Translations under genes and position numbers: made by a program
The notes under the pieces: model-generated
Database searches by the model: none
Seen by the model: only the letters and a program-made list of their open reading frames with translations
Told to the model about the DNA's origin: nothing
Part shown: positions 4,984-46,944 of the stretch, piece by piece
Layout of the letters: every line of letters starts with the position of its first letter
How positions within the stretch are numbered: the stretch's first letter is position 1
Virus record (IMG/VR): IMGVR_UViG_3300029969_000011
Origin: a virus
Taxonomy: Duplodnaviria > Heunggongvirae > Uroviricota > Caudoviricetes
DNA length: 64,000 nucleotides
Direction: 5' to 3' (one strand)

Positions 4984-7374
4984 ATGAAGATAATTTCTAA
5001 AGAAATTCGAGAAGCTGTACCTGAAGCTTATCTTCCTTTCAGTGCTTATGTTATTCAGACAAGAGCATTACCTGATGCTCGTGACTGTTTAAAGACTGGC
5101 GGTAGATATATTCTTTGGTCACAGTATCTCCAAAAGAACACTTATGATAAAAATAGAAAGAAAGGTCCTGACGTTGTTGGTCCTGTATCACACTGGAATC
5201 CACACGGTGATGCAGGTATTTGGGATAATATCGTAAGATTTGCAAAGCCATTCTCTATGAGATATTGTCTTGAAGATACAAAGGGAAATGTCGGCTCTAT
5301 GAGACTCGGTAAGGACCACGCAGCTCCCCGTTATCTTGAACTTCGTAGCTCAGAAATTGCAAATGAGTTTACAAAGCTCATTAAAAAAGATGCGGTAGAA
5401 CATTGGAAGTTAAACTATTCTGGTGAAGATAAATACCCTTCCGTATTCCCAACTTTATTCCCTAACTTTGTAAATGGTAATACTGGTATTGGTGTTGGAT
5501 GTGCAAGTAGTATCCCTTGCTTCAATCTATCTGAAGCCATTAATTCTTTGAAGATATTGGTTAATAATAGAGACGCAAGCTATGATGAGATTTATATTGC
5601 ACCTGACTTCCCTACTGGAGCTACAATTATAAATGGTGAAGCTGTAAAGGAATCATTACGTACTGGCCGCGGCAGAGCAGTAAAGCTCAGAGCAGTCATT
5701 GAATATGATGAAACAAAGAATGAACTTGAAATTCAGCAAGTACCATATCAGGTTTATACTGGAAGAGTTACTAAGCAGATTGAAGAAGCAATAGCTGAAG
5801 GTAAGTTGCTTGGTATCAAGAGCTTCTATGACGGTACTGATAGGTCTTGTGGTAAGTATGGTACTAAAATTATAATTACTTTAAATAAAGGAACTAATGT
5901 TAAGCAGTTAGTTCGTCAGCTTTATAAGGAAACTTCACTTCAATCTACTTTTACTGTTTGTCAGCTTATGCTTGAAAATGGTACAAAGCCAAAACAGTAT
6001 GGTTTGAAAGAAATGATGTTGGCATACCTTGACCATGCTATGGACTGCTTAAAGCGTTCTTATATCTTTGATTATAATAAGGTTAAGAAAACTCTCAATA
6101 TCAAAGAGGGTTATCTTATAGCGATTGCTCACATTGATGAAGTTGTCCAGTTAATCAAATCTGCTGAATCAGAAGCTTCACTTATCAAGACTTTTGAGGA
6201 TAAATATGGTCTTAATGAAGAACAATCTAAGGCTATTATTGACCTTAAGTTAAGAAGCTTAATGAAATTAGAGCATATTAAGATTGAAAAGGAACTTGAA
6301 AAATTAAGAATTGAAGCTGAAGGACTCGATACTCTTATTAATGATGAGGCCGCTTTTAAGGCAGCATTTATCGCAGAGCTCGACAGAATTGATAAGAAGT
6401 GGGGAGACTCTCGTAGAACTACTGTACTTAATCTCAATTGTGATGATGAAAAGGAAGATGCAGAGCCTATCGAGAAGAAGGAACTTCTTATATACTACAC
6501 TAATCTTGGCAACATTTATACCGTAGAAAGCTCTACTCTTATGAAAACGCGCCGCGGTGGCAAGGGTTCTAAGATTAAGATGGCAGATAATGAAGCAATC
6601 GTCAAGACAATTAATGATGACAACTTTAGCTCATTAATGATATTCTCTAACCTTGGACAGGCATATGCGTTGTCTATTGACGACCTTCCTGTAAATTCAA
6701 AGGTTAATGTAGCACAGCTATTCGATTTCAAACCTGACGAAAAGCCTACAACTATTACCTCAGTAAATCGTAGAAACGGTATCGAATACTATGTCTTTGT
6801 AACTAAGAACGGTATGATTAAGAAGACTGCGGGCGAGGAGTACAACTTTAAGAGAGGTAAGGCTCTTAAGGCAATCAATCTTAAAGACGGCGATGAAGTT
6901 GTAAATGTTCTCTTTATGAAGAACGAACAAGTCGGAATCTTGACAAATAACGGAAATTTTGTTAAAATAAATACAGAAGATATAAATGCAATAGGAAGAG
7001 CAACAGCAGGTGTCAAGGCTATTAAGCTTAATGACGATGACTATGTAATTGACGCAAAAATAATCGACGAAAAGGATAAGTATATGATTACACTTTCTGA
7101 ACGTGGCTTGATTAAGAAAGCTTCTATGAGCGAGTTCCCAGTTTGTGGCCGCCCCATCAAGGGTAAGAAGATTTCTGACACAAGAGACGGAGACAAAATA
7201 GTCAAATTCTTGACTTTAAATGAAGAAAGTGATATAATAATTATAGTAAAACGAAAGAACATAAAAATATCAACTTCTGAGTTAAGAGAGCTCACTCGCA
7301 ATGCTACTGGCGTAAAAGCTATAAACATTGATGAAGGCGACATAGCTTCAGATTTAGTGAGGGGATAGGAATGA
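4984..7374 (+). CDS. gyrA: Type IIA topoisomerase/gyrase subunit A with beta-pinwheel CTD; under code 15 it ends at TGA 7372-7374
   Basis: RALPDARDCLK, HPHG-like NPHGD, catalytic AAPRY, VNGNTGIGVG, GyrA-box-like RRGGKG, repeated (R/K)xxxG blades. The TAG at 7366 is followed by GAA TGA overlapping the next ATG. Confidence 0.92.
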
Positions 7375-7808
7375 GTATCGAAACTAAAATCGAAAAGATA
7401 AAGGCGGAGAAGGAGAGTGCCATTGAGGCACTCAACCTCTACCTTGATTCTATATACAATATGACTGACAGATTCTTCGATAACCAGATATAGGAAGTAG
7501 ATGGTGAGAAAAAGGTGGTCCGTGTTCTTAAAGAAGGACTGGAACCTGATGAGAAGATTGAAGGATTTGTAAAGGAATTAAACTCTGATGCAAGTGCGTA
7601 TGAAAATGTTAGAGGAAAGTTATTGTCTGACGACTTTAATTTGTCCCTCACTGAAATCGCAAGAATAGGACTTGCTTTTACTTTCGCAGGAATAGTAATC
7701 CAAAAGAGAGTGGAAGAAAGTCAGAGAGCGCTTGCCCAAATCAAGACGACAATTGACGTTTTGATGGAAGGAGAAACTCAAAATGTTGACTTTTCCAAAG
7801 AAGTTTGA
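7371..7808 (+). CDS. Hypothetical helical protein (145 aa, TAG at codon 41)
   Basis: ATG at 7371 is in frame with track ORF 7515-7808 through TAG 7491. Confidence 0.7.
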
Positions 7809-7814
7809 TATAAT
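7786..7814 (+). promoter_or_regulatory. sigmaA-type promoter
   Basis: TTGACT-N17-TATAAT with extended TG. Confidence 0.8.
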
Positions 7815-7873
7815 ATATATAGAAAATCAAACAAAGGCATAAGACCTTTGAGGAAAAGGAATAAGTTGAAAAT

Positions 7874-7902
7874 TTGACTTTTAATTCCGATTGTGTTATA
7901 AT
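7874..7902 (+). promoter_or_regulatory. sigmaA-type promoter (tandem with the 7786 promoter)
   Basis: TTGACT-N17-TATAAT with extended TG. Confidence 0.8.
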
Positions 7903-7995
7903 TATTAAGGTAAATAAATAGCAATATGTGGAAAACCCACCTGCTATTTTATTTAATACATTTTAAATTTTAAATTTTTAAAGGAGTGATTTACA

Positions 7996-8265
7996 ATGGC
8001 AACAAAGATGACTGAAGGTTCAAGAAAGGTATTTGAGTATCTCAAGGCAGCAGGCGCAGGTGTCGCTTTCACAACTAAGTAGGTATAGGAAGCTCTCGGA
8101 TTCGAGAAGGCTGGTTCTGTAACTGGTTCTGTTACTGGTCTTTGCAAGAAGGGCTACGCAGAGAGATTTACAGAGACTGTTGAGGATGAGAACGGCAAGA
8201 AGACTGAGGTTAAGAAGTTCGCTCTTACTGAGGCTGGCGCTAACTTCGACCCAGATGCTGAATAA
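7996..8265 (+). CDS. Small winged-helix DNA-binding protein (89 aa, TAG at codons 29 and 31)
   Basis: AAGGAGTGA RBS; MATKMTEGSRKVFEYLKAAGAGVAFTTKQVQEALGFEKAGSVTGSVTGLCKKGYAER...KKFALTEAG fits a wHTH pattern; codon usage typical of a highly expressed gene. Missed by the track. Confidence 0.75.
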
Positions 8266-8286
8266 TTGAAGTCAGACGAATTTAAA

Positions 8287-8315
8287 AGGGCGATATAACT
8301 ATCGCCCTAAATTTT
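8287..8315 (+). terminator. Intrinsic terminator
   Basis: AGGGCGATA-taac-TATCGCCCT followed by aaatttt. Confidence 0.6.
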
Positions 8316-8350: not shown

Positions 8351-9256
8351 ATGTTAAATATCGAAAAAACTCAGAGTGATAATTCAGTATATATGAGCGG
8401 CGTTCTTAATGAACTTGACATAACCACAGGCCAGTCTAAGGACGGCAAAGAGTGGATTCGTGGTACAGCAGTAATTAAGTGCGATTAGGAGATTAACGGA
8501 GTTCCCGTTGAGTGCCTTGGCACAGTAAAGATGTTCTCTATGAGATTGAAGAAGGACGGAGACCTTAATAAGGTTTACGACAGAATCCTTGGCTATAAGG
8601 AGAAGTTCACCTCAGAGGCAGCTGCTGATGAAGACCATCCAGCTTCTAAGGTTACTGTAACTGGTCAGCTTGAAGAGAATATTTGGATTGACAGCACTAC
8701 AGGTAAGGAGCGCTCTACTTTCCAGATTAGTTCTAACTTCTTAAATGACAAGAGAGAAGGCGACGAAGATGGTATTAAGTTCCAGCTTTCAGGTGTCGTA
8801 CTTAATGACCCTACAAATGCTGATGAAATCGACAAGAATGATGAGCCTACAGGCAGAATCCGTATCAAGTTCGGCGTAATCGGTTACGGCGGCAAGATTA
8901 ACGTTCTTGACCTTTATGCTTCTGAAGGTGCAAAGAGCCACATTCAGGACAGCTGGAATAAGGAAGACACAGTTAAGGTAACTGGTCGTGTTAATGTAAC
9001 AAAGAAAATTGAGCAGATAGAGGAAAAGCAGGGCTTTGGTGAGTCTATCATCAAGACTCGTACTATTTCTACTAAGGAGCTTATCATAACTGGTGGTTCT
9101 GCTTCTGGTCTTGAGGAAGAGCTTTCATATGACAGCGATTCCATTAAGAAGGCATTAGGAGACCGTAGAGCTAAGATAGACGAATTAATTGAAAATAGTA
9201 AGAACTCTACATCAAAGGCAGCTCCAAAGAATAAGAGTACTGATTTCGGATTTTAA
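8351..9256 (+). CDS. Putative single-stranded DNA-binding protein (tandem OB folds), 301 aa, TAG at codon 46
   Basis: GGAGG RBS and ATG at 8351 in frame with the track ORF; beta-rich OB-like halves (VTVTGQL, VKVTGRV); acidic/aromatic tail STDFGF; lies before the AAA ATPase and helicase. Confidence 0.65.
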
Positions 9257-9269
9257 TTAATCCGAAATC
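9242..9269 (+). other. Hairpin spanning the SSB stop codon
   Basis: GATTTCGGAT-N8-ATCCGAAATC. Confidence 0.45.
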
Positions 9270-9296
9270 TAACTTTATATCAAAGGAGTGATTTAA

Positions 9297-10271
9297 ATGC
9301 CTATAGATTTACTTAATCTACAACCTCAAGTAATTTCAAAAAATTTAAGAGGTAAATACATAATGCTTTATGGCTTGCCAGGCGTTGGTAAAACAAGCCT
9401 CGCGGCACAGTTCGAGAAAGTTCTTATCGCAGGTTTTGAAATGGGTACTAATGCACTTAATAATGTATATGTTGCCCCTATAAAGACTTGGGATGACTGG
9501 AAGAAAATGGTAAAGGACTTATGTAGAAAAGATGAACTTAAGGATAAATTCCACGCTATTGCTGTTGATACAGTTGATGAAGCTTGGAACCTTTGTACAA
9601 AATACGTATGTGGACAGGCAGGTGTTGATAACCTTAGCGATGTCGGCTTCGGTAAACTTTATGCAGAAGCTTCTAAGGAGTTCGCACAGCCATTCAGAGA
9701 TTTAGCTTATAACGGCTATGGTTTAATCTTTACAAGCCACTCCGCAGAGAAGGAGTTTAAGAATGAGAAGGGTGAGAAATACACTCAGATTGTTCCAGCT
9801 CTTCAGAACCGTGCATTTGACATTATCAACAAGATGGTTGATATTATTGCATACATAAGAGAAATTTCTCTCGAAGATGGCGACAAAGTTATTCGTAAGC
9901 GTTTTATGTTTCTTCGTGATGAGGTCGGCGATAGATTCTTAGTTAAATCAAGATATCGTTATATTGCCCCTCGTATTCCACTCGACTACAACGCATTAGT
10001 TGAGGCTATATATAAGGCAATAGACGATGAGTGCGCTAATTCTGGCGGCGCAGCTACGGATGAACATAATCCATATACAACCTTAAATTTCGATGAACTA
10101 ATGGAAGAAGCAAAGATGTTATGGGGCCAGGTTGTCCAAAACAACAAGGTCGGTGAGGCTTCAGCTATATTGGAGTCTGTCTTTGGAAAACCTAAAAAGT
10201 TTTCAGAAATCTTACCTGAAGAGGTTGATGGGCTCAATCAAGTTTTGATTGAGGTACGTGCTATACTTTGA
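9297..10271 (+). CDS. AAA-family ATPase (AAA_24/Sak4-like recombination protein)
   Basis: Walker A GLPGVGKT, Walker B IAVDTVD, LIFTSH motif. Confidence 0.8.
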   Translation: MPIDLLNLQPQVISKNLRGKYIMLYGLPGVGKTSLAAQFEKVLIAGFEMGTNALNNVYVAPIKTWDDWKKMVKDLCRKDELKDKFHAIAVDTVDEAWNLCTKYVCGQAGVDNLSDVGFGKLYAEASKEFAQPFRDLAYNGYGLIFTSHSAEKEFKNEKGEKYTQIVPALQNRAFDIINKMVDIIAYIREISLEDGDKVIRKRFMFLRDEVGDRFLVKSRYRYIAPRIPLDYNALVEAIYKAIDDECANSGGAATDEHNPYTTLNFDELMEEAKMLWGQVVQNNKVGEASAILESVFGKPKKFSEILPEEVDGLNQVLIEVRAIL

Positions 10272-10277
10272 TTATTC

Positions 10278-10308
10278 GGGGAAAGATTAATTTCTTTCCC
10301 CTATTTTT
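10278..10308 (+). terminator. Intrinsic terminator
   Basis: GGGGAAAGA-ttaatt-TCTTTCCCC followed by TATTTTT. Confidence 0.7.
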
Positions 10309-10323
10309 GTAAGGAGGGGCCTA

Positions 10324-11586
10324 ATGCTTGTAATTGATACTAATATTTTATTAGACTTCCCTCAGATTATTGAGGAAGAAACGGATGAACTTGTTATTGC
10401 TACAGATGTTCTTAAGGAGCTGGACGGATTAAAGTTACATCAGAATTTTGATGTTTCCTACAAAGCTCGCCGCGCCGCCGTTATAATTTCTCATAACTTA
10501 GATAAGTTAATATGGGATTGCACTCTTGAAAAAGAAAGATATGACAGTGTTGATGATAAGTTAATTGAAATTACGAAACGTAGAGATGCTATATTGGTTA
10601 CTAATGATGTTTACCTAAAAGTAAAAGCAATAACAAAAGGCGTAAAGACTCAGGCTTATGGTAAGACAGAAGCCTATACGGGTGTCAAAGAAGTTCTTAT
10701 AACACCAGAACATGACACGATGGTTGGTCAAATACTCGAAACTGGAGAGATACCAGATGAACTTGGAAAAGTTTATGAAAATCAGTTCGTCCTTTTTAAG
10801 GATGTAACCTCTCCATTTGTAAATAAACACGGCGAAACTGATTATGCTATCTATGATAGCTTCATCTGTAGCGGTGGATATTTACATCACTTATGTGAAG
10901 ACTACGAGTTAAGAATTAAGAATGAATGGTGCGAGAAGCCCGATAAGGGAATTGGTCCTCGTAACCCAGAGCAGAAATGCTTGTTCAATATTCTTAATGA
11001 CAGAAACATTACCATTGTTTACGCTGGTGGTAAATTCGGAACGGGTAAAAGCTTTATTATGAATAACTTTGCTTTGCAAGAAGTAGAGAGAGGAAGAATA
11101 AAGAAAATTGTCTATGTTCCTAACAACTCATATACAGAGAATACTATTGACATCGGTGCTTTGCCTGGCGAGCTACTTGATAAGGTAGCTGGACAAATCG
11201 GTCCGCTTGTAGACTTGGTAGGTATCGACAAAGTACAAGATATGATTACTCATAATCAGCTTGAGGTTGTCAATATGGGTTCTATCCGTGGTCGTAGTTT
11301 CAGCGACTCAATCATTATAGTGAATGAGGCTCAAAACTTAACAGAAGACCATATTAAATTACTTATAGGAAGAGTAGGTGAAGGTTCTCGTATCTTTTTC
11401 GATGGCGACTTAAAGCAAGCAGATAGCGCCGTTTTTAGAAACAGAAATGGTTTAAAGTTACTTTTAAATTTAAGAAAGTCTCCCATTTACTCTCGTATAT
11501 TTGCGACAGTCCAGTTAAAATTAACAGAGCGTAGTTTGACAGCGCAGGCTGCTTCTTACCTCGACGAATTTACGGGCGGCATTTAA
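10324..11586 (+). CDS. phoH: PIN-domain + PhoH ATPase fusion (PhoH2-like)
   Basis: N-terminal PIN VIDTNILL...VLKELDGLK...DDKLI...VTND; PhoH GKFGTGKS, RGRSF, IIVNEAQN, FDGDLKQAD. Confidence 0.88.
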   Translation: MLVIDTNILLDFPQIIEEETDELVIATDVLKELDGLKLHQNFDVSYKARRAAVIISHNLDKLIWDCTLEKERYDSVDDKLIEITKRRDAILVTNDVYLKVKAITKGVKTQAYGKTEAYTGVKEVLITPEHDTMVGQILETGEIPDELGKVYENQFVLFKDVTSPFVNKHGETDYAIYDSFICSGGYLHHLCEDYELRIKNEWCEKPDKGIGPRNPEQKCLFNILNDRNITIVYAGGKFGTGKSFIMNNFALQEVERGRIKKIVYVPNNSYTENTIDIGALPGELLDKVAGQIGPLVDLVGIDKVQDMITHNQLEVVNMGSIRGRSFSDSIIIVNEAQNLTEDHIKLLIGRVGEGSRIFFDGDLKQADSAVFRNRNGLKLLLNLRKSPIYSRIFATVQLKLTERSLTAQAASYLDEFTGGI

Positions 11587-11589
11587 GGA

Positions 11590-11617
11590 AAAGGGCGACG
11601 AAAGTCGTCCTTTTTTA
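11590..11617 (+). terminator. Intrinsic terminator
   Basis: AAAGGGCGAC-GAAA-GTCGTCCTTT followed by TTT. Confidence 0.75.
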
Positions 11618-11646
11618 TTGACTTTTTAACCAAATAATGTTATAAT
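11618..11646 (+). promoter_or_regulatory. sigmaA-type promoter for the helicase operon
   Basis: TTGACT-N17-TATAAT with extended TG. Confidence 0.85.
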
Positions 11647-11677
11647 ATTTATAGAATTAAAAGAAAAGGGTGAAGAA

Positions 11678-12388
11678 ATGGCTAAGCGTATACCTGAAGA
11701 AATTATATAGAAAATTCCTATTCTTTATAAAGAGTACGGAGTAAAGAACAAAGTAGCTGAAGAGCTTGGTATCTCCGTGTCCAGTGTCTCTAAATATTTA
11801 ACAATATTTGAAGCCGCGCCACAAGAGAAAGAACCTAAGAAGAAAACAAAGATAACTCCAGAGGTAATTGAACAAATCAATAAAAGATATTCCGAATGTA
11901 AGAATATGTCACAGGTGGCAAGAGAATTAGGAATATCAGCAACGACAGTTAAGAATTATCTTTCAGAAGAAAATCTTCAGCTAAAACAAATTGAATGTGA
12001 TGATAGAGATGCTCTCTGGTTTTACATTTTCAGATTGTTTGGTAAGCACTCTGATGAAAAGCCAGTAAGTGATTGGAATATCACACAAATGCAGAAGTTT
12101 CGTAAGCAGGGGATGCCCTATAGAGGGCAGCTTCTAACTTTGAAATGGTTCTATGAAGTAAAGAAAAACTCAAAGGAAAAGTCCAATGGAAGTATTGGAA
12201 TAATTCCGTTTGTTTATGATGATGCTCGACGTTATTATGAAAAGCAAGCAAAGAAAGCTGATGAAATTGGACAGGCAATTCAGAAGCAACTTGAACAAGA
12301 CAGAATTGAAATCAAGTACAATCCGAGTGACTATATCGGCAAAAAGACCCGTCGTAAGTTAATTGACTTGAACGAGATAGGAGAGTGA
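11678..12388 (+). CDS. Tandem-HTH replication protein (putative helicase loader/initiator), 236 aa, TAG at codon 11
   Basis: Two HTH repeats (PEEIIQKI...VAEELGISVSSVSKYL / PEVIEQIN...VARELGISATTVKNYL), with the TAG aligning to Q of repeat 2; C-terminal GIIPFVYDDARRYY; directly precedes the helicase. Confidence 0.65.
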
Positions 12389-12392
12389 TATA

Positions 12393-14087
12393 GTGATTTA
12401 GGTTGACAGAAGAACAATTATTCAAATTCTCGGCAGTTTGATGTGCCGCCCTGAGCTTTTAAGTGATGTCGATAAATATCAGCTTGAGCCGACAGATTTT
12501 AGTCAGCAACTTGATAAGATGATATTTTCAGCAATCTATAATTTGTTTGCGGGCGGCGCAGAAAGAATACATACGATAGACGTTGATACTTATTTACAGA
12601 CTAATGAGGTTGCGAAGAATCTTCTCGAAAAGAATAATGGCTTAGCTTTTATTCAAGACTGTGAAGATTTAGCAGACCCCGCAAACTTTCAGCTTTATTA
12701 CAATAAACTCAAAAAGATAAATCTTCTTAGAGATTTATAGAAGAACGGCAGAGATATTTCTCCATTCTATTGTGAAGACCCATTGAATGAGAAATATGCG
12801 GAAATCAATGAGCGTTTTGAGAAGATGACCGCTACTGACATATTTAATAGTCTTCGAGGGGAACTCGCAGATTTGGAAAATAAATATGTCATTAATAGCG
12901 TTGTTGAAGAAAGTAATGCCGCCACAGGTATTAGAGAATTGATTAAGAACTTGAAGGAGACTCCTGAAATTGGCGTCCATCTTCAGGGAGAGATATTCAA
13001 TACTGTGTGTCGCGGTGGCAGAAAAGGAAAGTTATATCTTCGTTCAGCAGGTTCTGGTGTTGGTAAAACTCGTTCTATGGTTGGTGATGCTTGTCAAATA
13101 GCTTATCCAGTCAGATATGATACTAAGTATCAGAAATGGGTTTATACTGGCGAGCCAGAGAAGGTTTTGTATGTAATGACAGAGCAAGACCCTGCAGAAA
13201 TTCAGACAATGATTCTTGCGTATCTTACGGGATATAATGAAGATATGTTCTTGTATGGTACTTATAAAGAAGAGCATATGGATAGAATTATGAAGGCAAT
13301 AGATATTATGGAACGTTATAAGGATTATATGCTATTTGCTCGTATTCCAGACCCTTGTGCTTCAGTTATCAAGAATCTGTTTAGAAGATATAGTTTACAG
13401 TATAACGTAGAGAACTTCTTTTACGATTATATCTTCTCTTCTCCTGCTATGCTCAATGAGTATAGAGATTTAAAGTTAAGAGAAGACGTATGTTTAAGAC
13501 TCTTAACAACAGCAATTAAGAATTTAGCTGTTGAGCTGGACGCTTTCATAATGTCAGCTACGCAGTTAAGTGGAGACGATGACCCAAAGGGAGGATTTAA
13601 AGACTTTAGAAATATTCGAGGTTCTAAAGCGATTGCCGACCTTGCTGACTTTGCCGCGATACGTAGACGACCAAGTCCAGAAGAACTCCAGCTTGTTGCT
13701 GATTTTGAAAAGCGTTATAACTTTAAACCTAATGCTATTACAGACGTATTTAAGAATCGTCGTGGACGTTGGACGATGATAAGTATTTGGTCAGCTGTAG
13801 ATTTGGGAACGTTAAGAACAGTTGATTTGTTTGTAACAACTCCAGACTATAAACCTATCCAAGATTTCCAAATCGTTAATTTTGTATCTGTTGATATGAA
13901 TAAGAGAAGGGAAATGGAAGAGTTTTATAATGATGGCGTATTAACAGATGAAATGGCAGATGAGCTATTAGCTAATCTTGAAGCACAAATGCCAAAGACA
14001 GTAACAGACTCAATCACCGAAGCATTTGGTGACGTAAAGGAAACTAAAGAAAGGTTGAAGAATTTGGACTTCGATGATTTATTATGA
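12393..14087 (+). CDS. dnaB: Replicative DnaB-like helicase, 564 aa, TAG at codons 3 and 116
   Basis: GTG at 12393 joins track ORFs 12438-12740 and 12783-14087 in one frame; Walker A SAGSGVGKT, FFYDYI, ATQLS, RGSKAIAD. Confidence 0.88.
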
Positions 14088-15154
14088 GAATTGATTTAAA
14101 GAAAGTTGAACAGGAGCTAACTCCAGAAAGAATCATTGAGCTGGTAACTGGCCTCGGTGCTGACAGATATGAAGAGAAAAATGATTACATAATCTTTCCG
14201 ACTATCTGTCATAACGAGGAAGCCTCCGAAGCAAAAATGAAATTATATTACTATAAGCGTAATCATAAGTTTCATTGTTATACAGATTGCGGAGAGAATT
14301 TTAACATCTATCAGCTTTTTGAAAAACGTTATGAGCTTCTTGGAATTGAATACGATTTCTATAAAGATATTGTATTAAAAATAGTTGACGGTATCAGCTT
14401 TCATCAATTCCAAGATGGATTTGGTTCTAAATATAAAAGTCTTGAAGATAGATATACAAGACAAGAAACTATCGTTGAAATAAAACCCATTAAGAAAAGT
14501 TTATTAAATATATATAGTTTCTACGCAACTGTAGAATGGTTGAATGATGGTATTAGCGAAGAAGCTATGAAAGTATTTAACATTCTATATGATGTTATTC
14601 ATAATAAAATAATTATACCACATTATGATGAAAATGATGAGTTAATCGGTATAAGAGGCCGCGCCCTCAATGATGAAGATTTGGTATATGGTAAATATAT
14701 GCCAGTATCAATAGAGGGAAAAATATATGCCCATCCTCTCGGTTATAATCTTTATGGCTTGAATATGAATAAAGAGAATATCCGAAAGAAGAAAATGGCA
14801 ATTATATTTGAAGCTGAGAAATCAGTTCTTCAATATGAAACTATGTACGGACGTGAAAATAATATTGCAGTTGCAGTATGTGGTAGTTCAATTTCATATT
14901 ATCAAATGCAATTATTATATGACCTTGGTGTTGAAAGAGTAATCGTAGCTTTTGACAGCCCTTCAGTTATTAACTGGGAGGAGCTGGATAAACATTACAA
15001 TAAACTGAAGAAGTTATGTGAAAGATTTGTATATAAGTGTAGAATGGGATTTGTTATTGACTATAAGAATATCCTCGGTGCGAAAGATAGTCCTACTGAT
15101 TTAGGCAAGACCGCGTTTGAGGAAATTATGAAACGCCCGATTTGGCTAAATTAA
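14084..15154 (+). CDS. dnaG: DNA primase (Zn-finger + TOPRIM)
   Basis: TICHN...FHCYTDCG Zn site, IIIPHYD...GIRGR, IFEAEKS, VAFD; ATGA overlap with the helicase. Confidence 0.8.
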   Translation: MRIDLKKVEQELTPERIIELVTGLGADRYEEKNDYIIFPTICHNEEASEAKMKLYYYKRNHKFHCYTDCGENFNIYQLFEKRYELLGIEYDFYKDIVLKIVDGISFHQFQDGFGSKYKSLEDRYTRQETIVEIKPIKKSLLNIYSFYATVEWLNDGISEEAMKVFNILYDVIHNKIIIPHYDENDELIGIRGRALNDEDLVYGKYMPVSIEGKIYAHPLGYNLYGLNMNKENIRKKKMAIIFEAEKSVLQYETMYGRENNIAVAVCGSSISYYQMQLLYDLGVERVIVAFDSPSVINWEELDKHYNKLKKLCERFVYKCRMGFVIDYKNILGAKDSPTDLGKTAFEEIMKRPIWLN

Positions 15155-15165
15155 GGAGGATTTGA

Positions 15166-16965
15166 ATGAAGTATATAAGAAAGACAAGTAAAGATATAAC
15201 TCATGACTTCTTATCTGAATTACTTGCAGATAGAAATATGAATTTTGGTGAGAACCCCACCTTATTCTTCCATCCAAGCTGGGAAAATGAACTTCCCTCA
15301 ACAGATTTGGATAATATATAGGAAGGTTATGAGTTACTTAAGAAGCACATACATAATGGTAGCAAGATGTTCATATGCGTTGACTCAGACGTTGATGGAT
15401 TTACAAGTGCCGCCTTAGTATATTGTTTCTTGATGAATACTTACGGAGTTAAGTATTAGATTTCAATTGACTATCACGTTCCTGAAGGAAAGGAGCACGG
15501 ACTTCGTACTCTTATGGATATGTTCACAAAGGAGAAGATTTGTGACTTAATCATACTCCCCGATAGCTCAAGTAATGACTATGAGGAACATAAGATATTG
15601 AAGGATATGGGATATGACATTCTTGTACTTGACCACCACGAAGCTGACCATTATAGTGAAAATGCAATCGTTATTAACAATCAGCTTTCAAAGAATTATG
15701 AGAATAAGTCTTTAAGTGGTGTAGGAGTTGCATATAAATTCCTTGAATATTTTGAACACGCTTTTGAAAGTGATTTAATTTCTACTATGGGTGAAGAAGG
15801 AATATATGAAGCAGAAGGCTGGGAACCTCATATTCAGGATTATATTGACCTTGTAGCACTTGGAGAAATAAGTGATATGATGAATATGAATACTCTTGAA
15901 AATCGTTGGTTCTGTGAAGAAGGACTTTCTCATATAAACAATGGTTTCTTTAAGGAACTTGTTACAAAGCAGTCATACTCATTGGGTGACGGTCCACTTA
16001 CACAAATTGGAATTGCTTTCTATATAACACCACTTATAAACGCTTTAATCAGAGTTGGCTCTGACTTAGAGAAGGAAAGATTATTTGAAGCATTTCTTAT
16101 GCCAGAGAAGATAGTTCCTTCTACAAAGCGTGGAGAAAAGGGACAGACTGAAACTCTTGCAACACAGAGTGCAAGAAATTGTGTAAATGCTAAGTCCCGT
16201 CAGAAGCGTGAAATGGATAAGGCAACTCAGTTACTTGATGTGCAGATTATTAACAATGACCTTGATAATAATAAAATCCTTATTCTCAATGCAGATGACT
16301 TAAATGTTTCAACAACATTAACTGGTCTTTGTGCTATGAACGTTGCAGCTGCACATAAGAAGCCCGTTATGTTGGGAAGAATAAGTCCTGATGGATATTT
16401 AAAAGGTTCAATTAGAGGCCGCGGCGAGTCAGAGTTAAAGGACTTCAGAGCTTTCCTTCTTGAAAGTGGTCTTATGGATTACGTAGAAGGACACGGTAAT
16501 GCCGCAGGCTTCAGCATTAAGCAGTCAAATGTTGATAAACTTACTGCATATGCAAATGAGAAGTTGAAGGACATTAACTTTAATGAAGGATACTATGAAG
16601 CTGATTTCGTAGTTCAAGGCAACTGTTCATATCTTGCTGATATGATTATAGACCTTGAAAGAGGACGTTCTCTTTGGGGTCAGCAGAATGATGAGCCTAT
16701 TATCATTGTAAAGGATATTACACTTGATGTAAAGGACATTCAGGCAATCGGCTCTTATAAGGATACATTAAAGTTTTCTTTCAATGGAATAACATATGTT
16801 AAGTTTAAGGCTAAGGCTTTACTTGATGAATTATTCTTGAAGAGCGGCAAGATAAATATCACAATTGCAGGCCGCGGCAACATAAATAATTGGGGCGGTA
16901 AGTCAACCCCACAGATTTTACTTGATGAAATGGAAATCAAGGAGTGTAGTGAGGAGGACTTTTAA
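15166..16965 (+). CDS. recJ: RecJ-like DHH single-stranded DNA exonuclease, 599 aa, TAG at codons 52 and 98
   Basis: Motif I VDSDVDG appears only on read-through; LDHH, LVALGEISD, GSIRG, EGHGNAAG. Confidence 0.88.
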
Positions 16966-17354
16966 TGGTACTTCTTGTAGCAGGAAGTCGTGATTATTAT
17001 GATTACGATGAGTTTAAACAGGTTATGGATTATACCCATAATAAGTATCATATAGATAAAATTGTGAGTGGCGGCGCAAGAGGCGCCGACTCACTTGCAG
17101 AAAGATATGCTAATGAAAATAATATTCCAATTAAAGTATTTCCAGCCAGATGGAGTGTTTATGGTAAATCAGCAGGTTTTATTCGTAATGAAGATATGCA
17201 CAATTATTTAAGTCTATATGGAAATAGAATGTGCTTGTGTTTTTGGGACGGAAAGAGCCGCGGCACAGCACATAATTTTAAACTTTGTAAGAAAAATAAC
17301 ACCAGATTGGTTTGTTATAATTTTAAATTACATAAAGTAATGGAGGGTTTATAA
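16965..17354 (+). CDS. SLOG-family protein (DUF2493/YspA-like)
   Basis: VAGSRDY, IVSGGARGADSLAERYA, YGKSAGFIRN motifs. Confidence 0.8.
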   Translation: MVLLVAGSRDYYDYDEFKQVMDYTHNKYHIDKIVSGGARGADSLAERYANENNIPIKVFPARWSVYGKSAGFIRNEDMHNYLSLYGNRMCLCFWDGKSRGTAHNFKLCKKNNTRLVCYNFKLHKVMEGL

Positions 17355-18810: not shown

Positions 18811-21800
18811 ATGAGCTTAAATGATATACCTCGTTTTGATACCCACTCTCATAGTGAGTATAGTAATATTCGTTTAATTGACTCAATCAATAAGATACCA
18901 GATATGATTAAGACAGCACATCGTCTTGGAATGAAGGGTATTGCATTGACTGACCACGAATGTGTCAGCGGTCATTTAAAGTGGTTACAGACAGAAAAGA
19001 AGTTAAAAGAAAAGGGAGAGATACCCGAAGATTTCAAGTGTGCGTGCGGTAATGAGATTTATCTCGTTGATGACAGAGCAAACATTGAAAGATACTGGCA
19101 CTATATCTTAATTGCGAAAAATGCAGATGGACATAAGGCAATCAGAGAATTAAGTTCTACCGCTTGGTATCACAGTTTTACCTCTCGCGGCATGACAAGA
19201 GTTCCGACAGAAAAGAAAGAACTTGAAGCAATAGTTAAGAAGTATCCTCATTCTCTTATTGCAACAACTGCTTGTATTGGTGGACAGCTTGGAGGAAGAG
19301 TTCTTCAATTAGTAAAAGCTGAAGACCACGGCGATATGGAAGAAATTATCCGTTGTAAGCAGGATATAGATGCCTTCATTAGATGGAATCTTGAACTATT
19401 CGGTGATGATTTCTACATTGAGGTTGCTGCCGGTCAATCAAAAGACCAGATTAGATTTAATAAGAGAATTGCCTCAATAGCTAATAATTATTTGGTAAGA
19501 ATGGTAATCGGTTCAGACGCACACTATCTTACTGCGGCAGAACGTCCTCTTCACAAGGCTTATCTTAATTCAAAGGAAGGCGACCGTGAGGTTGATGAGT
19601 TCTACTTTGATGCTCATATGATGGATAATGAAGAAGCCTTTGGAAATCTTCAAGTTGCTTTCTCAGAGGAAGACTTTGGTCAAATGTGCGTAAACTCAAT
19701 GGAGATTTACGATAAGATTGAGCCATTCAGTCTTGAACATACATCAATTATTCCAGAGGTTGAGGTAAGAGATTATCCACAAATCTTCTCTCCTTATGGA
19801 GATAAATATCCAGTAATAAATGGATTATTTATGAGTAATGACATTCAAGAAAGATATTGGATAAATGAGTGTATACAGGCGCTTATTAATAAGCGTTTAA
19901 TCACAGAGCCGGAATATCTTGAAAGACTTGAAATAGAAGCTGATGTTATTAAGACAATCGGTGAAAAGCTTAATGATTGTTTGTTTAAATACTTTAATAC
20001 CTTCCAGCATTTCATTAACTTGTTCTGGGATTGCGGTTCAATCGTAGGTCCTGGACGTGGTTCAGCAGTATGTTTCCTTTCAAACTACTTACTCGGTATC
20101 ACTCAGCTTGACCCATTAAAGTGGGGACTTAAGTATTGGCGTTTCCTTAATAAAGAACGTGTTGAGTTACCTGATATTGATATTGACCTTTCTCCTTCAA
20201 AGCGTAAGAAAATCTTTGAAGCAATCCGTAAAGAACGTGGTGAGTTAAACGTTATTCAAGTTTGTACTTTCGGTACAGAAGGAACCCGTTCAGCGATTGC
20301 CGCGGCAGGACGTGGTTATCGTTCAGAAGCATATCCTAATGGACTTGAAGTTGAAACTACTCAATATCTTAGTGGTCTTATTCCACAAGAACGTGGCTTC
20401 TTATGGTCAATTCACGATGTCGTTTATGGTAATCCTGAGAAGGGTAGAGCTCCTATTGGAGCATTTATCGCTGAAGTAGAGAAGTACCCTGGTCTTCTTG
20501 AGATTATTGAGTCAATTGAAGGACTTGTAAATAAAAGAGGTCAGCACGCTTCTGGTGTTATTCTTTATAACACAAATCCTTGCGATACTGGTGCGATAAT
20601 GAGAAGTCCTAACGGAGACCTTACAACTCAGTTCTCACTTCACGAAGCTGAGGCAATGGGCGACGTTAAATATGACTTCCTTGTAACTGAAATTTGTGAT
20701 AAGATAACAACTTGTATCGAACTTATGCAGAAGGACGGTATTGTTGAAAAAGACTTATCATTAAGAAATATTTATGACAAGTATCTCCACCCATCTGTAT
20801 TAAATCTTGAAGATAAGAGAATGTGGGACGCTCTTGGACAGGGAACTGTTCTTGATGTATTCCAGTTCAGTACAGGTGTTGGTCTTGCAACTGCAAAGCA
20901 GGTTAAGCCTCAGAATCCAACCGAAATGACTTCAGCAAATGCGATAATGAGACTTATGGGAGAAAGAGGAAAAGAAAGACCACTTGATAGATATTGCCGT
21001 CTTAAGGAGGATATTGGTCAGTGGTATAAAGAAGCAAGAGATAGAGGACTTAGCGAAGACGAAATAAAAATCCTTGAACCATACTACTTGCCTCGTTTTG
21101 GCGTTCCTGCACTTCAAGAAGACCTAATGGAGATTTGTATGGACGACAAGATTGCACACTTCTCATTAAAAGAAGCTAACGCGGCACGTAAAACTGTTGC
21201 GAAAAAGCATATGGAAGAAATTCCTGCACTCCACGATAAGTTCGTTGATGCTTGTCCGAATAAGAATTTCGGTGATTACGTTTGGGAAACTACAATGGGT
21301 CCTCAGATGGGTTACTCATTCTCACTTCCTCACTCACTTGCATATTCATTCGTTGGTATTCAAACATTATACTTAGCAACAAATTATCCCGCTATCTATT
21401 GGAACTGTGCTTGCTTAATTGTTAATGCCGGCGGTGCAGATTTGTTAGATACAGACGACGTTGATACAGATGCTGAAGAGACAGACACAACAGTCAAGAA
21501 GAATAAGAGCGTAAACTATGGTAAAATAAGTGCCGCCATAGGAGATTCTAAGACACGAGGAATTACTGTATTGCCGCCAGATATAAATGAGTCAGACTTA
21601 ATCTTCAAGCCTGAGTTAAAGCGTAATGCTATCATCTATGGTATGAAGGGAATTAATCGTATAGGCACAAAACTCGTTTATGAGATTTTCAATAATCGTC
21701 CTTACACAAGCATTGAAGATTTCTTATCAAAGGTTAAGGTAAATAAGCTGCAAATGTTCTCACTTATAAAGGCGGGAGCTTTCGATGAACTTTGCGGAGA

Positions 21801-31400: not shown

Positions 31401-34400
31401 CTTTAACATTAGTTTCAACATTAGCTTGAAGTTCAGTTAAAGATGAAGTAGAAAGATTTATAATTGCATTAGAAAGTTTATCGTATTCAGTATTCAAATA
31501 GCCGAGCTGTTTAAGATAACCATAGTCACCTTCACCCTTACCATAAAGGTCTGCATCAACAGAATCTTTATCCAAGATACCTTTAGTTGTGTAGTATCTG
31601 AAATCAATGATAAAGCTGTCTTTAGAAGGGTTATCTTCTGCTGTTTTAATTGAACATAAACCAGTTTTAGAAAGGTCACTATCAACATCGGCAACATATA
31701 GCTTTGTAACTATTTGGTCACTCTTAATATCACGAGAAATTGAGGACAAGTTCTTTTCATATCTGAAGCCGAGTTTATTCTCCATACCTTTTTCCTTGAT
31801 ATAGAACACTTTCTTTCTCATTCTTTCGTAAGTATCTGTACCATAAAGTGACTTAGTTTCTTCATCACATTCTACAGTATCAGTTTTTATCTTACCATTC
31901 TCATAGTGCTCTGTCCAATAGATTGGATATATTTCAAAAACTTTACTAAGCTCCTGTGTTAAGTTAAAACGGTTAGACTTCTCTCCATTAAGAGTTCTTA
32001 TTTTACGACAATGCTTTTCTGTCTCAAATAAATATGGGCAATATCCATATTTCTAATAAAGACATAAATGGTCGCCGCCGTAAGAACAGTCTGGAGAATT
32101 TTTATTAGAAGTCTTATTATAGTATTTACATTTATTCAAGTCAATATACTTTGTAGCAATATCTATATCATCGTTATTAAATTGTGCCGCACTATATGGT
32201 AAATCATTATGAGATATGTTTGTATTCTTAAATGCTATTAAGTCAGCATAATCACTAAGTATTTCTTTCTAAGCGAAAGTATCAGCGATACTTTTTCTTC
32301 CAGTACGAATACCAGTTTCTTCATCTGTTTGATAAGCAATTACCTATTGAATAAAGTATTTTTGATATGCGTATGTATCACCAGGCATTACGTCTTCTTC
32401 AAAGATAATCTTTGCGTGGACAGCCGCCTTATCAAACATATCTGTAATGCTACAATTATAAACTCCACTAACAATGAAAGAAGAAGTATTTTCTTTAAAA
32501 GTCAAGTCATATAATTCTCTACCGCTATATCTATATTCAGGCTCTTCATCTTCATTTTCACTTATAAATTGGTCAACACCTTTAGTATAAGCTTCAAATA
32601 GATAGCTGTTAAATAAGTAATAATCGGGAATTGTATGTGTAGTTACTTTAGTATATTCCTCTTCCTCATAAGTTCCAGACTAATCGACAGTAAAAGTAGA
32701 TTTTCCTGCTGTAATAGCATAATATGGATTGTCTATATTGTTATCGAACTTAATAAAAATATAGCCTTCATATATGTCAATCTGCTTCACTTCTGTATCT
32801 CGTCCATCAGTAGACTTGACTCTGATAGTCTCCTGGTCACCAGTAAAAGTTACAATGTCTTGTAATGAAAGACATACTCCAGTAGACTCTTCCTCTGAAC
32901 TTGGATTAGCAGGACAAATTATATCATATTCACCATTAGTGACAACTTTACCTTCACCTATTCTTATTTCAAAAGCACTAAGTGGATTGCCACTGTCTGA
33001 ACGATATTTTTCTTCCAAACCAATCTTAATACCTAAACAGTAAATCATGTCCTTTATGATTTTCTTCTCTTGACCTACTATACCAAAATTAATTATAGTA
33101 TTGTAATAGTCAAACTTATCAGAAAGACCTGCCGGACTTAAGTAATTATCTGTTCTAACTTCATTATGAACAGATGTGCTTGGAAAATCTTTTAAGCTTG
33201 GTATAACCTATAAGAAGGTATTTTCAGGTTCAGTAACATATTCGTATGTCTCAATTGAAGAAGAAGCTTTTTCAGTTGTTCCAACTCTCATTTGAAGATT
33301 AGAGCAGAAGTAACTTTTAGTTCCTTCGTCTCCAGCGAATATTTTACAAGGTTCCCAACCATCTGTGCTTTTTATCTTAGTACCATTCTATAAATAGTTT
33401 CTTGCAAGCTAAGGAATAATCTGACGAGTTTCAGTCTTAGAGCAAACTCTATATTCAATCCCATCAACATCTTGCCATAAGCCGTCTGGATTAGTATAAA
33501 GGTCTTTTAATTCGCTACTATTGAACTTCTAATTATAAACCTTTACATATTGGTCAATATCCTCGGTAATATTAACTTCTGTGCGGTCAGAAATTGAAAT
33601 CTTTTTACCATACAAAACCTCAATATCATTTATCTTATCGAGGTATCCTTCATAATATGCAGCCATATTACCGACAGCTTCCATTTCGTATCCTGACATC
33701 TGAGCTGCATAGAATTTCTTTCCATCATTTCTCTTTATAGGAAGGAACTGGTAGTAGTATTTAGAATTGATATGCTCGTTCCATTCTTTAACTGTCATAA
33801 CATAAGTGTAGTCCTTATTAACAATGAGGCCCGCTTCATCAATCTCAATTTCTGCTCCTTTAGGGATAGCTATAAATTGAATCAATGCTGTTGGGTCTAC
33901 AGTATTTGGTGCAATAGCATAAGATTTATTGTCATAATAGCAAACTTCTTCTGTTGCGGCATAGTTCTCATCTGATGTATTCTAATAGCAAAATTCAAGC
34001 TGTGAATATGGAACATAGATATATCCATCATTTGGGATATTAGAGATAGTATTGCTCATTAATGGCATAGAACCGTCATAAGCATCCCAGAAGTATCCTC
34101 CCTTACCATCAACTGCCGCGGCGAGGTCGTCGCCCATTTCAAGACCACGTTTCTCTTTTGTAAAAACATTTATAATCTGTTCTTCATTTCGAGGTTCATC
34201 AATATTATAGTAAAGTTTATGACCGACAAGAGTTGGGAATAAATCTCCACCGACAGGAATCTTAAATAACTTTTCTTCTAAGTATTCGGTGAAATCACCC
34301 CAGTTGTGTTCTGGCGCATAACTCCAAATACTATCTTCGAGAATAACTCTTGAAAATGTACCGATTTCCTCAACATTGTTATATAGCTCAGTATCAAAAG

Positions 34401-34815: not shown

Positions 34816-37353
34816 TTAATAGAATAGCGGAACGTATTTAATCTATATATCATTGAGCAAATCAATGTATCCCCAGTAAATAGGAGGGAAGTTTGCCCAG
34901 ATATAGTTATTAGCATACCACCACCATTCACTTAATTCTCCGTGGAAATATTCATTTGGATTTGCACCAAAATTATTTCTCCAATACTCATCAAGAGTAC
35001 GCAAGAATTTAACTTCAGTTACTTCAGTGCGCTTCTTATAAATGTCGTCTCCAAATGCGGCCGCGGCACTACTGAAATCTGCAAGAACTAACATTTCTCT
35101 ACGATAATCTTCATACCAGCGACGTAATTGGAAGATATGCTCTATCTATTCCATTTCATCTGTAGTAAACTGTCCATTATCATAGACGAGTTCTCCTTCA
35201 TGTCCCTCATCATCTCTAACAAATGCTTCGTCAGTATTTGTTGTTATGTATTCAGGACAATATTTCTCAATATGGCGTTTTACCAATTTAGTATAAATTG
35301 TATTGTATATCTAACGCTTCTTTTGAACTTCTTCATAGTTAGCATCTTCACTCCAACCCCAATCGAATGGTCTGGCATCGAGCCATCTCTTGCCGCCCCA
35401 GACATCTTCGTCGACTACTGGAGTTATATTAATCAAAGACCATCCAGGAGGAAGTTTAAACCAGTGACCTTTTTCAATATTCTCATTAAGAATATTCTTA
35501 CGAGGTTTATAATCATAGAAGTTATCATAAAGCTCTTCGTTGTCTTTCTCCCATTTTGGTTCAATTATATTATACAACATTCTACGGTCAGTGTCAAGGA
35601 ATAGAGGTTCAATAGTCTAATGCTTGACATCTTTGTCTTGTATAAACTAATCAAAGTCTTTTGTGTTTATATCAAAATAATCTCCTGTAATATATTGAGG
35701 ATAATTATTGATATTAAGGTCAAACTAACCATATTTAGCATTATCATTAGTTTTCACACGTATATACTCTGCTGGACTATAAATATAATCATAGACGAAA
35801 TCTTCATATGTATAGTCATCATTGAATATTCTTGGAAGTGGAGCCCTTGCTTCTTGAAGAGCCTCATCTAATGCTAAATAACGACTTAAAATAGCATCCT
35901 TAAGAGTCTTCCAATAAAGCTCATATCTTTCTTCGTCAGTAATACATTCTTTATAGAGCTCTTCATATCGTGCCGCCATAGCCTTACCCTATTCAAAATC
36001 AATAACCTGTTTTACATATGGGTCGTCTTTATTTAATTGTAAGCTCTACCAATAAAAAAGTCTAATAAAATGTCCAAGCTTTTCTCTTGGAATAGGTTCA
36101 ATTAAATAAGTATGATTAGGATGAGCCATTTTAAGATTACGATATGCCGGCTCATAGAAATTAATAGTCTATCCGTCAACTTCTGTTGAGGTAACTAATT
36201 TTGTATCATCAATACCTTCTGCAATAGTAAAGTATCTATTACCATATTTATAAGGCACATTGTCTTCGTCTCTAAATGTTGTTAATCCAGTCCAATCAAC
36301 AGCATCCTCAATCAATAATCTCTATACATTATGACGAGAAATTCTGAATGTATATGGGTCACGACCTCTAAACTGCTTTATAAGATTACCAATACGAAGT
36401 TCAAATTCAACTGGTACATCGCCTGGATTATAAACCAATATTCTACTTCCCATAAGATTTGTATTATGAGCTGAACCAATGTCCATATTGTAATAATCCT
36501 TCTTACTGTACTAAGGTAAATAAATTAACTCTTGGTCATAGTCTAATGTTGGTGTAGTTAAGAGTTTAGCAGTTCCTTGCCATTCAGGTATATTCTTCCA
36601 GTATCCACGAACATCAATAAGAAGTTTATTATCATTATTTGGTGCGTCAGAACAGTCCTGTGGAATAACTGGTCTATCTGTTGATGGAGGAGGAGTAAAG
36701 TAAAGTTCTCCCCATTGAGTCTGCTCTATGGTTGGATATCCACCCTTCCAAGGAGTATTCATATTGGGATGAACATTATAATGGTCTTTGATAAGACCAG
36801 GTAACATCTTCTTAGGGCCGCGGCGTCTGTATGGATTTTCTTCGATACTATTAGTGATAATATCTTCTGGCATCATACATTTATAATAGTCTGCCGCCCT
36901 AACAACATATTTATTAAAACCAAAGGCATAAGGGAAATAGCAAATGAACTAAAGAGTACCCTCTCCTTTGTAAACTCTTTCTCCAGTCTCTCTATTTGTA
37001 AAACAAATGTGCTTAAAGTCTGGATTTTGTTTTATTTTGGCTCTATAAGTTTTATATGGTAATTCATCGAATACTAAATCCTATAATTTATCTGTTGCAA
37101 ATAATTGAGCTATCTTTCGGAAGGTAGGTTCGCTTACATTATCAAAAGCAACATGAACTGTAAAACTTCTTGCATCAAAAGTCTAACCAAAATAATATTT
37201 TCCATCCCCTCCCGGCACATCAATAGTATAATCTTTAGGAGGAGGTAAAAGATTCTTGTCATAGCGATTACTTGAACTGACTACGACTAAATCTAAGTCT
37301 GAGGAATGAATATCTCCAAAACGGAATCCCTCAAAGTCTTTCATCTTTGCCAT
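34816..37353 (-). CDS. Distal tail protein (Dit) with large insertions, 845 aa
   Basis: GDGKYYFGQTF, FDELPYKTYRAK, VYKGEGTLQFICYFPYA, NPGDVP; directly after the tape measure gene. Confidence 0.75.
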
Positions 37354-37404: not shown

Positions 37405-37408
37405 ACCT

Positions 37409-45016: not shown

Positions 45017-45036
45017 TTAATTCACCTCTTCTTTTA

Positions 45037-46944
45037 TCATTCAAATTTATCTAAATTAAAGTTTATTCCTTTAAATTCAATTCTTCCATTTAAACCACTA
45101 ACCAATGACTAAACAGAAGTTGCTTTAAAGGGAACGTTTTCTTCAAGCGTATTAAATTTATTATTCTAAGTATTTCTTTGAAAATCAAATCTCTAAGGAG
45201 ATTTAGCATTTCTTACTGTTTTTATGAGCAAGTAATATAAGTAAGAACTCGGAATAATTAAATTCTTTAAAAAGAAAGCGTCACTACGAGTAAAATCATC
45301 AGTATCTCCAGCCGATATTCTTAAAAAATTATCTGAATAGTCATATAATGACATCTCAATAGAGTGTTTAAATTTAATTGGAGTGGTCCATCCAAGACCT
45401 CCATCTGCTCCACCCTATTCTAACATACTTTCATTTGCAAATAACCAATAATATGTATCAGCGGCATTTCCCACATATTTCTACATAATATTCTTATTAG
45501 AAACATCAAAATCAGTTCTGTAGAAACCACTTTGTTTTTTAAGACTTTTAAAATTCTTTACCTGAAATCCGAACTTCTTACCAGCAATCTAAACAACAAC
45601 GTCCATTGCAACTTCACCGGCTTCTGTCTCATCACTACCAGTAACTGAAGCAGAACTTCCTTTAATCTTTGAAACAACAGCAATCGCGGCGGCAAGCTCT
45701 CCAAGAATACCTCTTGTTTGTGCATATCCCCAACGAGCAATTATCTTTCTGACATCTTCTGATGTTCGCGCCTGTTCATTCTCATTTTTATTTATATCTG
45801 TTAATATAATATCTCTTATGATAGATTTATTATTTATTAAATCTTTTTCAATAAGTTTATAATCATAATCATTATGACTTTTTGCAAAACTTATCGCAGT
45901 AGTATATAAAACATCATATAGTATATCTACCATCTATTCTGGAGAAATCATAGTTCCATCATCAGTCCATAATTTAGCATTGACCTATGCGGCGTAAATA
46001 CCATTATTAACAGTTACATCGCTTGATAAAGAAAGGGGTCCTATTGGAGTATCAAATTTAATATCAACCCCACTTGTTTTTGCAGCAATACTCATAACTC
46101 TTTTTAAAATATTTTTTAACTCTCTCTCTGTCTACTCAGATACACCTTTTTTAGTTCCATTGGTACGAGCGTTAAAATATATGTCTCTTCTCGTTCCATT
46201 AAAAAGAGCATTAGCCTCCTATTCAAAAATTGAACCTATATTATTATAAACGCCTTCAACAAACTCTGGAGACTGTAATGCCGCGGTTCCTATCCCCTCT
46301 CCTATATAATCATTCATATACTTTTCAAACTACACAAGCCATTTATTATATTCATCTCTATTAGTCAACTTTCTTGTCTCTAAAAAGGCACTTCTTTGAG
46401 GTCCTTTTTCAATCATAGATTTTCCTTTTTCAGTCAAAAATAAATTTGCTAATTCATAAGTAGCAGTATTTACTTTTCGTCCTTTTACTTGTGCAGATGC
46501 GTGTAAACTAAAAGTATTGCTTGAATGAGATAAATAAGTAGCATATTCATAATCTTGAAATAATGCCCTTAAATCATTTTTATCACTATATAATTTCTTT
46601 TTCACTACTTTATTAAACTCTTTTGCATAAGCATCATTCTCTGGAGAGCTAACGTGAGCTGGAGCAGATTTAATTTTCTCAGCTTTAATTGCTGTAAGAA
46701 ACTGTTGTTCTCTTCCAATTGCAGTAGTATATAAACTCTAAAGTTTATCTTCTAACGCAGCAATTAACTTATCTTTTTTTGTATAATAAGGCTAATTCAA
46801 AAGATTATAAGCCTATGTAGCAAATTGTCTATACTCTTCAGACCAAAAGAAAGATTCCTCTGCATTTAATTCAATATTATCTTTTCTGCCCATTTTTGTA
46901 TATTGAATAATAGAAGGCTTAGAGCCATTAACAATATTATCCAT
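45037..46944 (-). CDS. 635-aa protein between the tail tubes and TMP with a possible PD-(D/E)xK-like motif
   Basis: Single frame with TAG read-through; RGILGE...MDVVVQIAGKKFGFQVKNF. Confidence 0.65.

Follow-up and report, generated by a model that had tools for sequence, protein, structure and literature searches.

The window analysed here comprises 64,000 nucleotides (64 kb) of the virus record IMGVR_UViG_3300029969_000011, part of a genome of approximately 180-190 kb from a lytic-looking, SPbeta-type siphophage. The element under study is the pentamer GCSGC (GCCGC or GCGGC), which is dispersed over the whole window at several times its expected frequency. Close relatives of the phage come from gut metagenomes, some apparently from rumen and pig. 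The window has a GC content of 36.6% and is 97% coding. Its genes were read with genetic code 15 (TAG = Gln): open reading frames of at least 120 amino acids (aa) cover 95% of the window under this code and 55% under a non-recoded reading, and 202 in-frame TAG codons lie across 49 genes, mainly structural. A tRNA with a CUA anticodon is carried by the relatives G004, G038 and G041. The original prediction had missed the recoding; all null models below were computed under code 15.

The left arm encodes NrdD/G, a gyrase-type topoisomerase, an 89-aa winged-helix protein, YorF, a Sak4-like ATPase, helicase, primase, a RecJ-like nuclease, DnaE, ClpP, dUTPase and RuvC; lysin, tail and head genes lie on the minus strand of the right arm. 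The replication module was rightly described as SPbeta-like, and its yorF-yorK block is predicted to supply the recombination and priming functions of the phage itself. The features on which the argument depends are as follows.

43-63877, both orientations: 131 dispersed GCSGC pentamers (70 GCCGC and 61 GCGGC), 128 of them coding, one per approximately 490 bp (2.0 per kb), extended consensus TTGYGCCGCS.
7996-8265, plus strand: TAG-recoded gene for the 89-aa winged-helix protein, the most conserved gene of the clade and a candidate reader of the pentamer.
8351-16965, plus strand: SPbeta-like yorF-yorK block, comprising YorF, a Sak4-like annealing ATPase, PhoH, helix-turn-helix YorH (11678-12388), DnaB helicase, primase (14084-15154) and a RecJ-like exonuclease.
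18811-22731, plus strand: DnaE-type polymerase, by which the relatives were gathered and ordered; 39% to SPbeta YorL.

The size of the excess was determined with 500 synonymous-codon shuffles, per gene and pooled. Coding GCSGC numbered 128 against approximately 35 after shuffling (observed/expected 3.65), made up of 67 GCCGC against 17.4 (z 13) and 61 GCGGC against 19.5 (z 11). The DNA-level, codon-independent enrichment claimed in the original prediction was thus retained under the codon-preserving shuffle that it had itself named as the decisive test. Its hand count of approximately 55 sites in the first 26 kb, against 8-9 expected, became 61 against 10.7 for independently drawn bases. The signal had been placed at 5666-46287; it is present there and extends over the whole window (43-63873), at the HIP-like density that had been suggested (2 per kb). 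Sites that are forced by no amino-acid pair, referred to as off-frame, numbered 58 against 12 in the window genes, and the excess was present in each available frame and alike on coding and template strands. As had been noted, the sites lie in different frames and call for rare codons: 27 of 62 CGC, 40 of 132 GCC and 31 of 116 GCG codons end within a site. Dipeptide drive was weak, with Ala-Ala, Arg-Arg and Arg-Gly at z 2.6-3.0 and not outstanding. Gaps between sites were close to Poisson, only the longest gap being short. Even spacing of the kind expected for primase sites was rejected on this distribution, and the primase zinc-domain motif is nearly identical in SPbeta, which lacks the word.

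Attention had been drawn to the region by the 8-bp palindrome GCCGCGGC, for which approximately 0.06 copies had been expected at about 35% GC (0.08 for independently drawn bases at the measured GC content). All nine reported positions were exact and the window holds no further copy; the shuffles gave 0.2 copies on average and never attained nine. The near-matches at 6551, 27963, 31148 and 46280 are GCCGCGGT or its reverse complement. The nine copies, each its own reverse complement, are located as follows.

5666-5673: gyrA-like gene, Gly-Arg-Gly (GGC CGC GGC), frame 1.
16418-16425: recJ-like gene, Gly-Arg-Gly; the same place lacks the palindrome in the relatives L088, L002 and G004.
16871-16878: recJ-like gene, Gly-Arg-Gly; preserved in L002.
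17257-17264: YAcAr/YpsA-like gene, Ser-Arg-Gly; among the best matches to the extended consensus.
20299-20306: dnaE, Ala-Ala-Ala; L088 and L002 carry GCGGCCGC, with two pentamers retained and the palindrome lost.
25590-25597: ruvC-like gene, Arg-Arg-Gly; preserved in L088 and L002.
34115-34122: 2110-aa tail gene (minus strand, TAG-recoded), Ala-Ala-Ala.
35060-35067: 845-aa tail gene, in an Ala run where three pentamers overlap.
36817-36824: 845-aa tail gene, Arg-Arg-Gly; preserved in the relative G001.

The selected unit is the pentamer and not the palindrome. The core is strict (HCCGC 0.98x and GCCGD 1.15x, against 3.65x for GCSGC), and once GCSGC was masked the remaining G/C-only pentamers numbered 171 against 195 expected. 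A general bias toward G/C-only words was rejected for these two reasons. A synonymous recoding model with a weight of 2.0 per pentamer reproduced the GCSGC count and yielded only 2.4 palindromes against the nine seen; addition of one flanking base raised the prediction to 9.4. This model is partly circular, as the 8-mers supply 18 of the 40 GCCGCG. The palindrome as an independent unit, as originally put forward, was given up on this comparison. GCCGCGGC is a by-product of the pentamer, namely two overlapping inverted copies of GCCGCG, because the hexamer model accounts for its number and because two relatives carry GCGGCCGC at 20299. The least favoured hexamer context was AGCGGC (1.2x).

Gain and loss of sites were followed in ten close pairs of relatives, which are not fully independent, by comparing synonymous positions that complete a site with control synonymous G/C positions. 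Change away from the motif state was 0.16 against 0.31-0.40 in controls, and change toward it 0.21 against 0.04-0.10; after correction for multiple hits, loss was x0.40 and gain x3.1 relative to controls. By our own arithmetic, the 65 discordant sites observed compare with approximately 120 predicted for gain alone, 24 for protection alone and 51 for selection. The recoding model independently requires a weight of 2.0 per site (log-odds approximately 2). All five positions of the word varied, and no halo of low divergence was seen past 5 bp (ratios 0.76-1.05). These values fit sites held under weak selection or another fixation bias.

The excess was found in most of 80 IMG/VR relatives, and off-frame GCSGC pooled over 134 loci, some redundant, amounted to 1688 against 442. 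Which word is favoured depends on the branch of the DnaE tree: GCCGC in the clade of the window, CGCGC in its sister clade and CCGCA, GCGGA or CCCGC in a third. GCCGC is also the top pentamer of phAss-1 (398 against 215; OQ749652; PMC10607447), which like the recoded gut phages (10.1101/2021.08.26.457843) shares the SPbeta-like DnaE block and code 15; no mention of the word was seen in passages of those two accounts. SPbeta (12 against 16), Enterococcus phage VRE9_3 and three temperate gut phages showed no excess. On the bacterial side, the word was not enriched in the chromosomal contigs co-binned with five relatives, and in approximately 27 sampled Clostridia the off-frame enrichment did not exceed 2.2x and went with the coding strand. 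GCCGCGGC was rare in 150 genomes of the phylum of G043. One bacterial genome of that phylum, G140, holds 24 copies of GCCGCGGC against one of the reversed control; the leading word there is CCGCG (19/4) and not GCSGC.

Copies between genes were examined in four near-complete relatives, in which non-coding GCSGC stood at 52/1.9, 37/2.5, 42/4.6 and 28/3.7 observed/expected (8-27x). Their consensus, TTGYGCCGCS, is asymmetric; some copies are single half-sites, some form terminator stems and others stand in convergent pairs 21-47 bp apart with an AT-rich centre; 17 pairs were convergent, three direct and none divergent. A matrix built from the intergenic copies of the other genomes, leaving one genome out, scored the coding copies of the window above shuffled sequence (p 2.5e-24), and still did so when the bases at +-1 were omitted (p 5e-13). 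Coding and intergenic copies are therefore taken as the same element. Of 54 sites no more than 100 bp from a strong sigma70-like promoter, 49, as a raw count, lay upstream of the -35 box. The window itself holds few intergenic copies, and the stem-loop and promoter arrangement is seen in the relatives. One such copy of the window is given here.

46965-46990, minus strand: intergenic GCSGC copy (46980) within a terminator-like hairpin, a stem-loop with a U run behind it; GCCGC occurs in a look-alike context in the relatives G043 and G038.

A further intergenic word, GCGCCCGGG, was recorded in the non-coding DNA of three distant relatives (approximately 25 copies in G004, seven in G035 and five in G017) and is probably a sister form of the element.

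The reading that we favour, at about an even chance, is a genome-wide protein-recognition site whose putative reader travels with the phage lineage. GCCGC would be the core of an asymmetric site of approximately 10-13 bp (TTGYGCCGCS), and a sequence-specific protein accompanying the lineage would recognise it in duplex DNA, whichever way round it stands. The fullest copies would be intergenic, either single or in convergent inverted pairs, and mostly upstream of host-type promoters, while weaker copies would be pressed into coding DNA every 500 bp or so through synonymous changes, each under weak selection. The reader may mark or organise the phage chromosome, in a nucleoid-like or transcription-boundary role. 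A DNA-binding site is preferred because it covers the enrichment on both strands, the shared flanks, the inverted pairs and the tracking of the lineage; that a protein binds the site, that the phage encodes it and that it marks or organises the chromosome are all inferred. TTGTGCCGCG is put forward as the site sequence for comparison of binding against single-base variants.

Of the explanations offered in the original prediction, the third, recognition by a DNA-binding protein, agrees best with the data, and nothing links it to the 89-aa winged-helix protein specifically. That protein is a candidate reader only, and a doubtful one. It belongs to the core genes of the clade and has a generic MarR-like fold, and its distribution and helix sequence follow the word only imperfectly; the same holds for the primase zinc domain. 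Another candidate reader is a conserved 395-aa sigma-factor-like protein (phrog_5767), which is encoded after the terminase at L083:12948-14132, approximately 5 kb past the end of the window.

Several observations weigh against the favoured reading. In PMBT24, a phage with an off-frame excess, no homologue of the winged-helix protein was found, and VRE9_3, which has no such excess, contains a weak one. The G004 protein has an identical recognition helix though G004 adds GCCGG, and no site lies upstream of the winged-helix gene itself. GCCGG variants are scattered over the tips of the tree, which could mean dependence on the host. The co-binned metagenome-assembled genomes (Fimenecus, Faecalibacillus, Erysipelotrichaceae and Clostridia) are not proof of the host and are weak controls. 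PMBT24 and Ceridwen, phages of Clostridia that avoid GCWGC, also have an off-frame GCSGC excess. The intergenic pairs fold into RNA stems of -14 to -29 kcal/mol, and their A-tract is not common to the coding copies. A polarised within-species comparison gave four losses and one gain, too few for power.

Over-represented words kept by selection are of an already known kind, exemplified by Chi and HIP, and the rival explanations were weighed with these in mind. A Chi-like signal, in which GCGGC would be read by an AddAB-type helicase-nuclease of the host and accumulated to limit end degradation or promote recombination, retains some of the plausibility originally given to it and is on balance unlikely. 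The Chi words known from Bacillota are AGCGG in B. subtilis, GAAGCGG in S. aureus and GCGCGTG in L. lactis (10.1101/2021.07.08.451572). They share GCG plus G/C with the clade words GCGGC, TGCGG/GCGGA and GCGCG, and here too a short GC-rich word is selected in a phage genome beyond codon usage. There is also mild polarity: in five genomes GCCGC favours the plus strand along most of the length, with the opposite preference up to 10 kb from the portal region, and upstream of the window the split is 33 against 4. The polarity is, however, only approximately 1.5:1 when pooled, with both orientations enriched 2-6x, where phage LLS has 20/23 and S. aureus 90%. AGCGG, the B. subtilis word, lies within the least favoured hexamer. 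In the sampled Clostridia GCGGC was not replication-polar, and in G232 it follows the coding strand; ordered inverted intergenic pairs are not a feature of Chi. Phages do select Chi, and Chi-rich lambdoids (P1 is also Chi-rich) lack a Rec module (PMC12315714), whereas this phage encodes Sak4-like, RecJ-like and RuvC-like proteins of its own. The HIP words of cyanobacteria are a further parallel: the pentamer is itself the known alternative HIP, GCsGC, of Cyanothece PCC 7822, described alongside HIP1 and another alternative, GCCGGC (Elhai 2015; PMC4390886). The pentamer, its all-GC composition, its density of 1-2 per kb and its placement inside genes in several frames are all shared. In the Elhai model a host GCSGC methyltransferase and methylation-directed repair would fix new sites as a ratchet. 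This predicts the faster gain and slower loss that were seen, with variation at all five positions, and GCCGGC is high in G004. We nevertheless consider it improbable here: the flanks are asymmetric and four bases long, no protection was seen past 5 bp, sister clades use the non-palindromic CCGCA and CCCGC, and the host chromosome should be the most enriched, yet no sampled bacterium comes near the phage. Unlike HIP, the word belongs to a phage, its near-complete relatives lack a cognate methyltransferase and the palindromic 8-mer is not the unit. Patch repair coupled to a phage enzyme, as the original prediction had supposed, would require a C5 methyltransferase resembling SPbeta MtbP and a Vsr-type very-short-patch nuclease, and has next to no probability. 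GCSGC is a subset of GCNGC, the replication block is SPbeta-like, and a small DUF2726-like (Vsr-fold-like) nuclease lies directly upstream of the window at L001:4697-5107 in a 94% identical relative (a sub-threshold match, E 0.004). Against this, the methyltransferase family PF00145 was found in none of the 17 relatives with a completeness of 90% or more and in one of 38 overall, that carrier (L012) having no excess (14/14), and PF03852 (Vsr) in none of the 38 records. Neighbours expected from deamination were not depleted (GTCGC 0.92x, GCCAC 0.89x), change was not confined to particular positions of the word, and SPbeta has mtbP without an excess. C5 methyltransferases were recorded at two loci of relatives, L169 (G010:55464-56393) and L196 (G044:C15); L012/G010 shows no GCSGC excess and is depleted in GCWGC, and the G044 contig retains the excess.

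Three further alternatives were weighed. In one, the word has no function and reflects either a context-dependent mutation bias of the phage DnaE or a preference for G/C-only words in general. A phage polymerase would account for the tracking of the phage tree, and the first codon of Ala-Ala pairs is spread almost evenly over the four possibilities (36/40/30/37), as if the AT bias were switched off. This alternative is judged very unlikely, given the lack of excess in other G/C-only words once GCSGC was masked, a number of discordant sites that neither gain nor protection alone reproduces, the involvement of each position of the word, and ordered intergenic pairs, which need selection. An element acting at the level of RNA, such as terminator or processing hairpins with the coding copies as noise or spill-over, has only a slim chance. 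The folding of the intergenic pairs, the position of most promoter-near sites upstream of the -35 box and the terminator-like hairpin at 46980 speak for it. The promoter-stem-loop (PeSL) cassettes of T4-type phages are similar in being repeated, GC-rich intergenic stem-loops beside sigma70-like promoters in a variable region, and their authors speculated on a DNA-binding reader (PMC2839356). PeSLs are intergenic only, whereas 128 of the 131 sites in the window are lone coding copies, one every 500 bp or so with the same flanks and equally enriched on both strands, and many intergenic half-sites are without a partner. Lastly, the word could be a by-product of avoiding the restriction site GCWGC, as Ala-Ala must be encoded by GCNGC. 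GCWGC stands at 83 against 130 in the window, and its avoidance is clearly the main cause in the cultured Lachnospiraceae phages PMBT24 (L333/L406; 0/74) and Ceridwen (L412; 3/60). In the window only the Ala-Ala frame shows the deficit, which is zero-sum there; off-frame GCWGC is 10 against 10.7 (649 against 468 in the clade), where off-frame GCSGC is in clear excess in both, and the intergenic copies are left unexplained. Avoidance as the sole cause is refuted; that this is what underlies the word has hardly any probability, and it may add to the frame-0 half of the excess.

Some further observations concern the window and its surroundings. An ATP-dependent DNA ligase is encoded directly upstream of the window (L001:2596-3777). 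Five successive virion genes (46989-56978) have the phrog_2729 domain in common and are apparently a tandem series of paralogues. CGG is absent from the 794 Arg codons of the window, in which CGA and CGC are in use, and equally absent from the core genes of ten further strains (L376-L385), G004 and G041; the host could be unable to read CGG as Arg. GATC, CTAG, ATCGAT and GACGTC are wholly absent from the window, and CATG, GAATTC, GATATC and AGTACT are strongly depleted. An excess of GACC/GGTC is probably forced by the avoidance of GATC.

Literature searches returned no description of a GCCGC word in phages, nor of its clade-wide, methyltransferase-free form with intergenic inverted pairs. Phages are expected to purge GC-rich palindromes; here GATC and CTAG are fully purged, yet one GC-only word is selected genome-wide. 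As a tentative extension of the favoured reading, and one that we hold with rather low confidence, a family of lytic gut phages may tag its own chromosome every 500 bp or so, coding DNA included and against its AT bias, so that a phage-encoded protein can distinguish the DNA of the phage from that of the host when the genome is compacted, protected, replicated or packaged, with tag and reader drifting jointly between clades. If a phage protein reads the word, it would be a phage counterpart of the HIP- and Chi-type chromosome words and a sequence-based mark of self; if a host nuclease reads it, it would be a first candidate Chi word for gut Clostridia.

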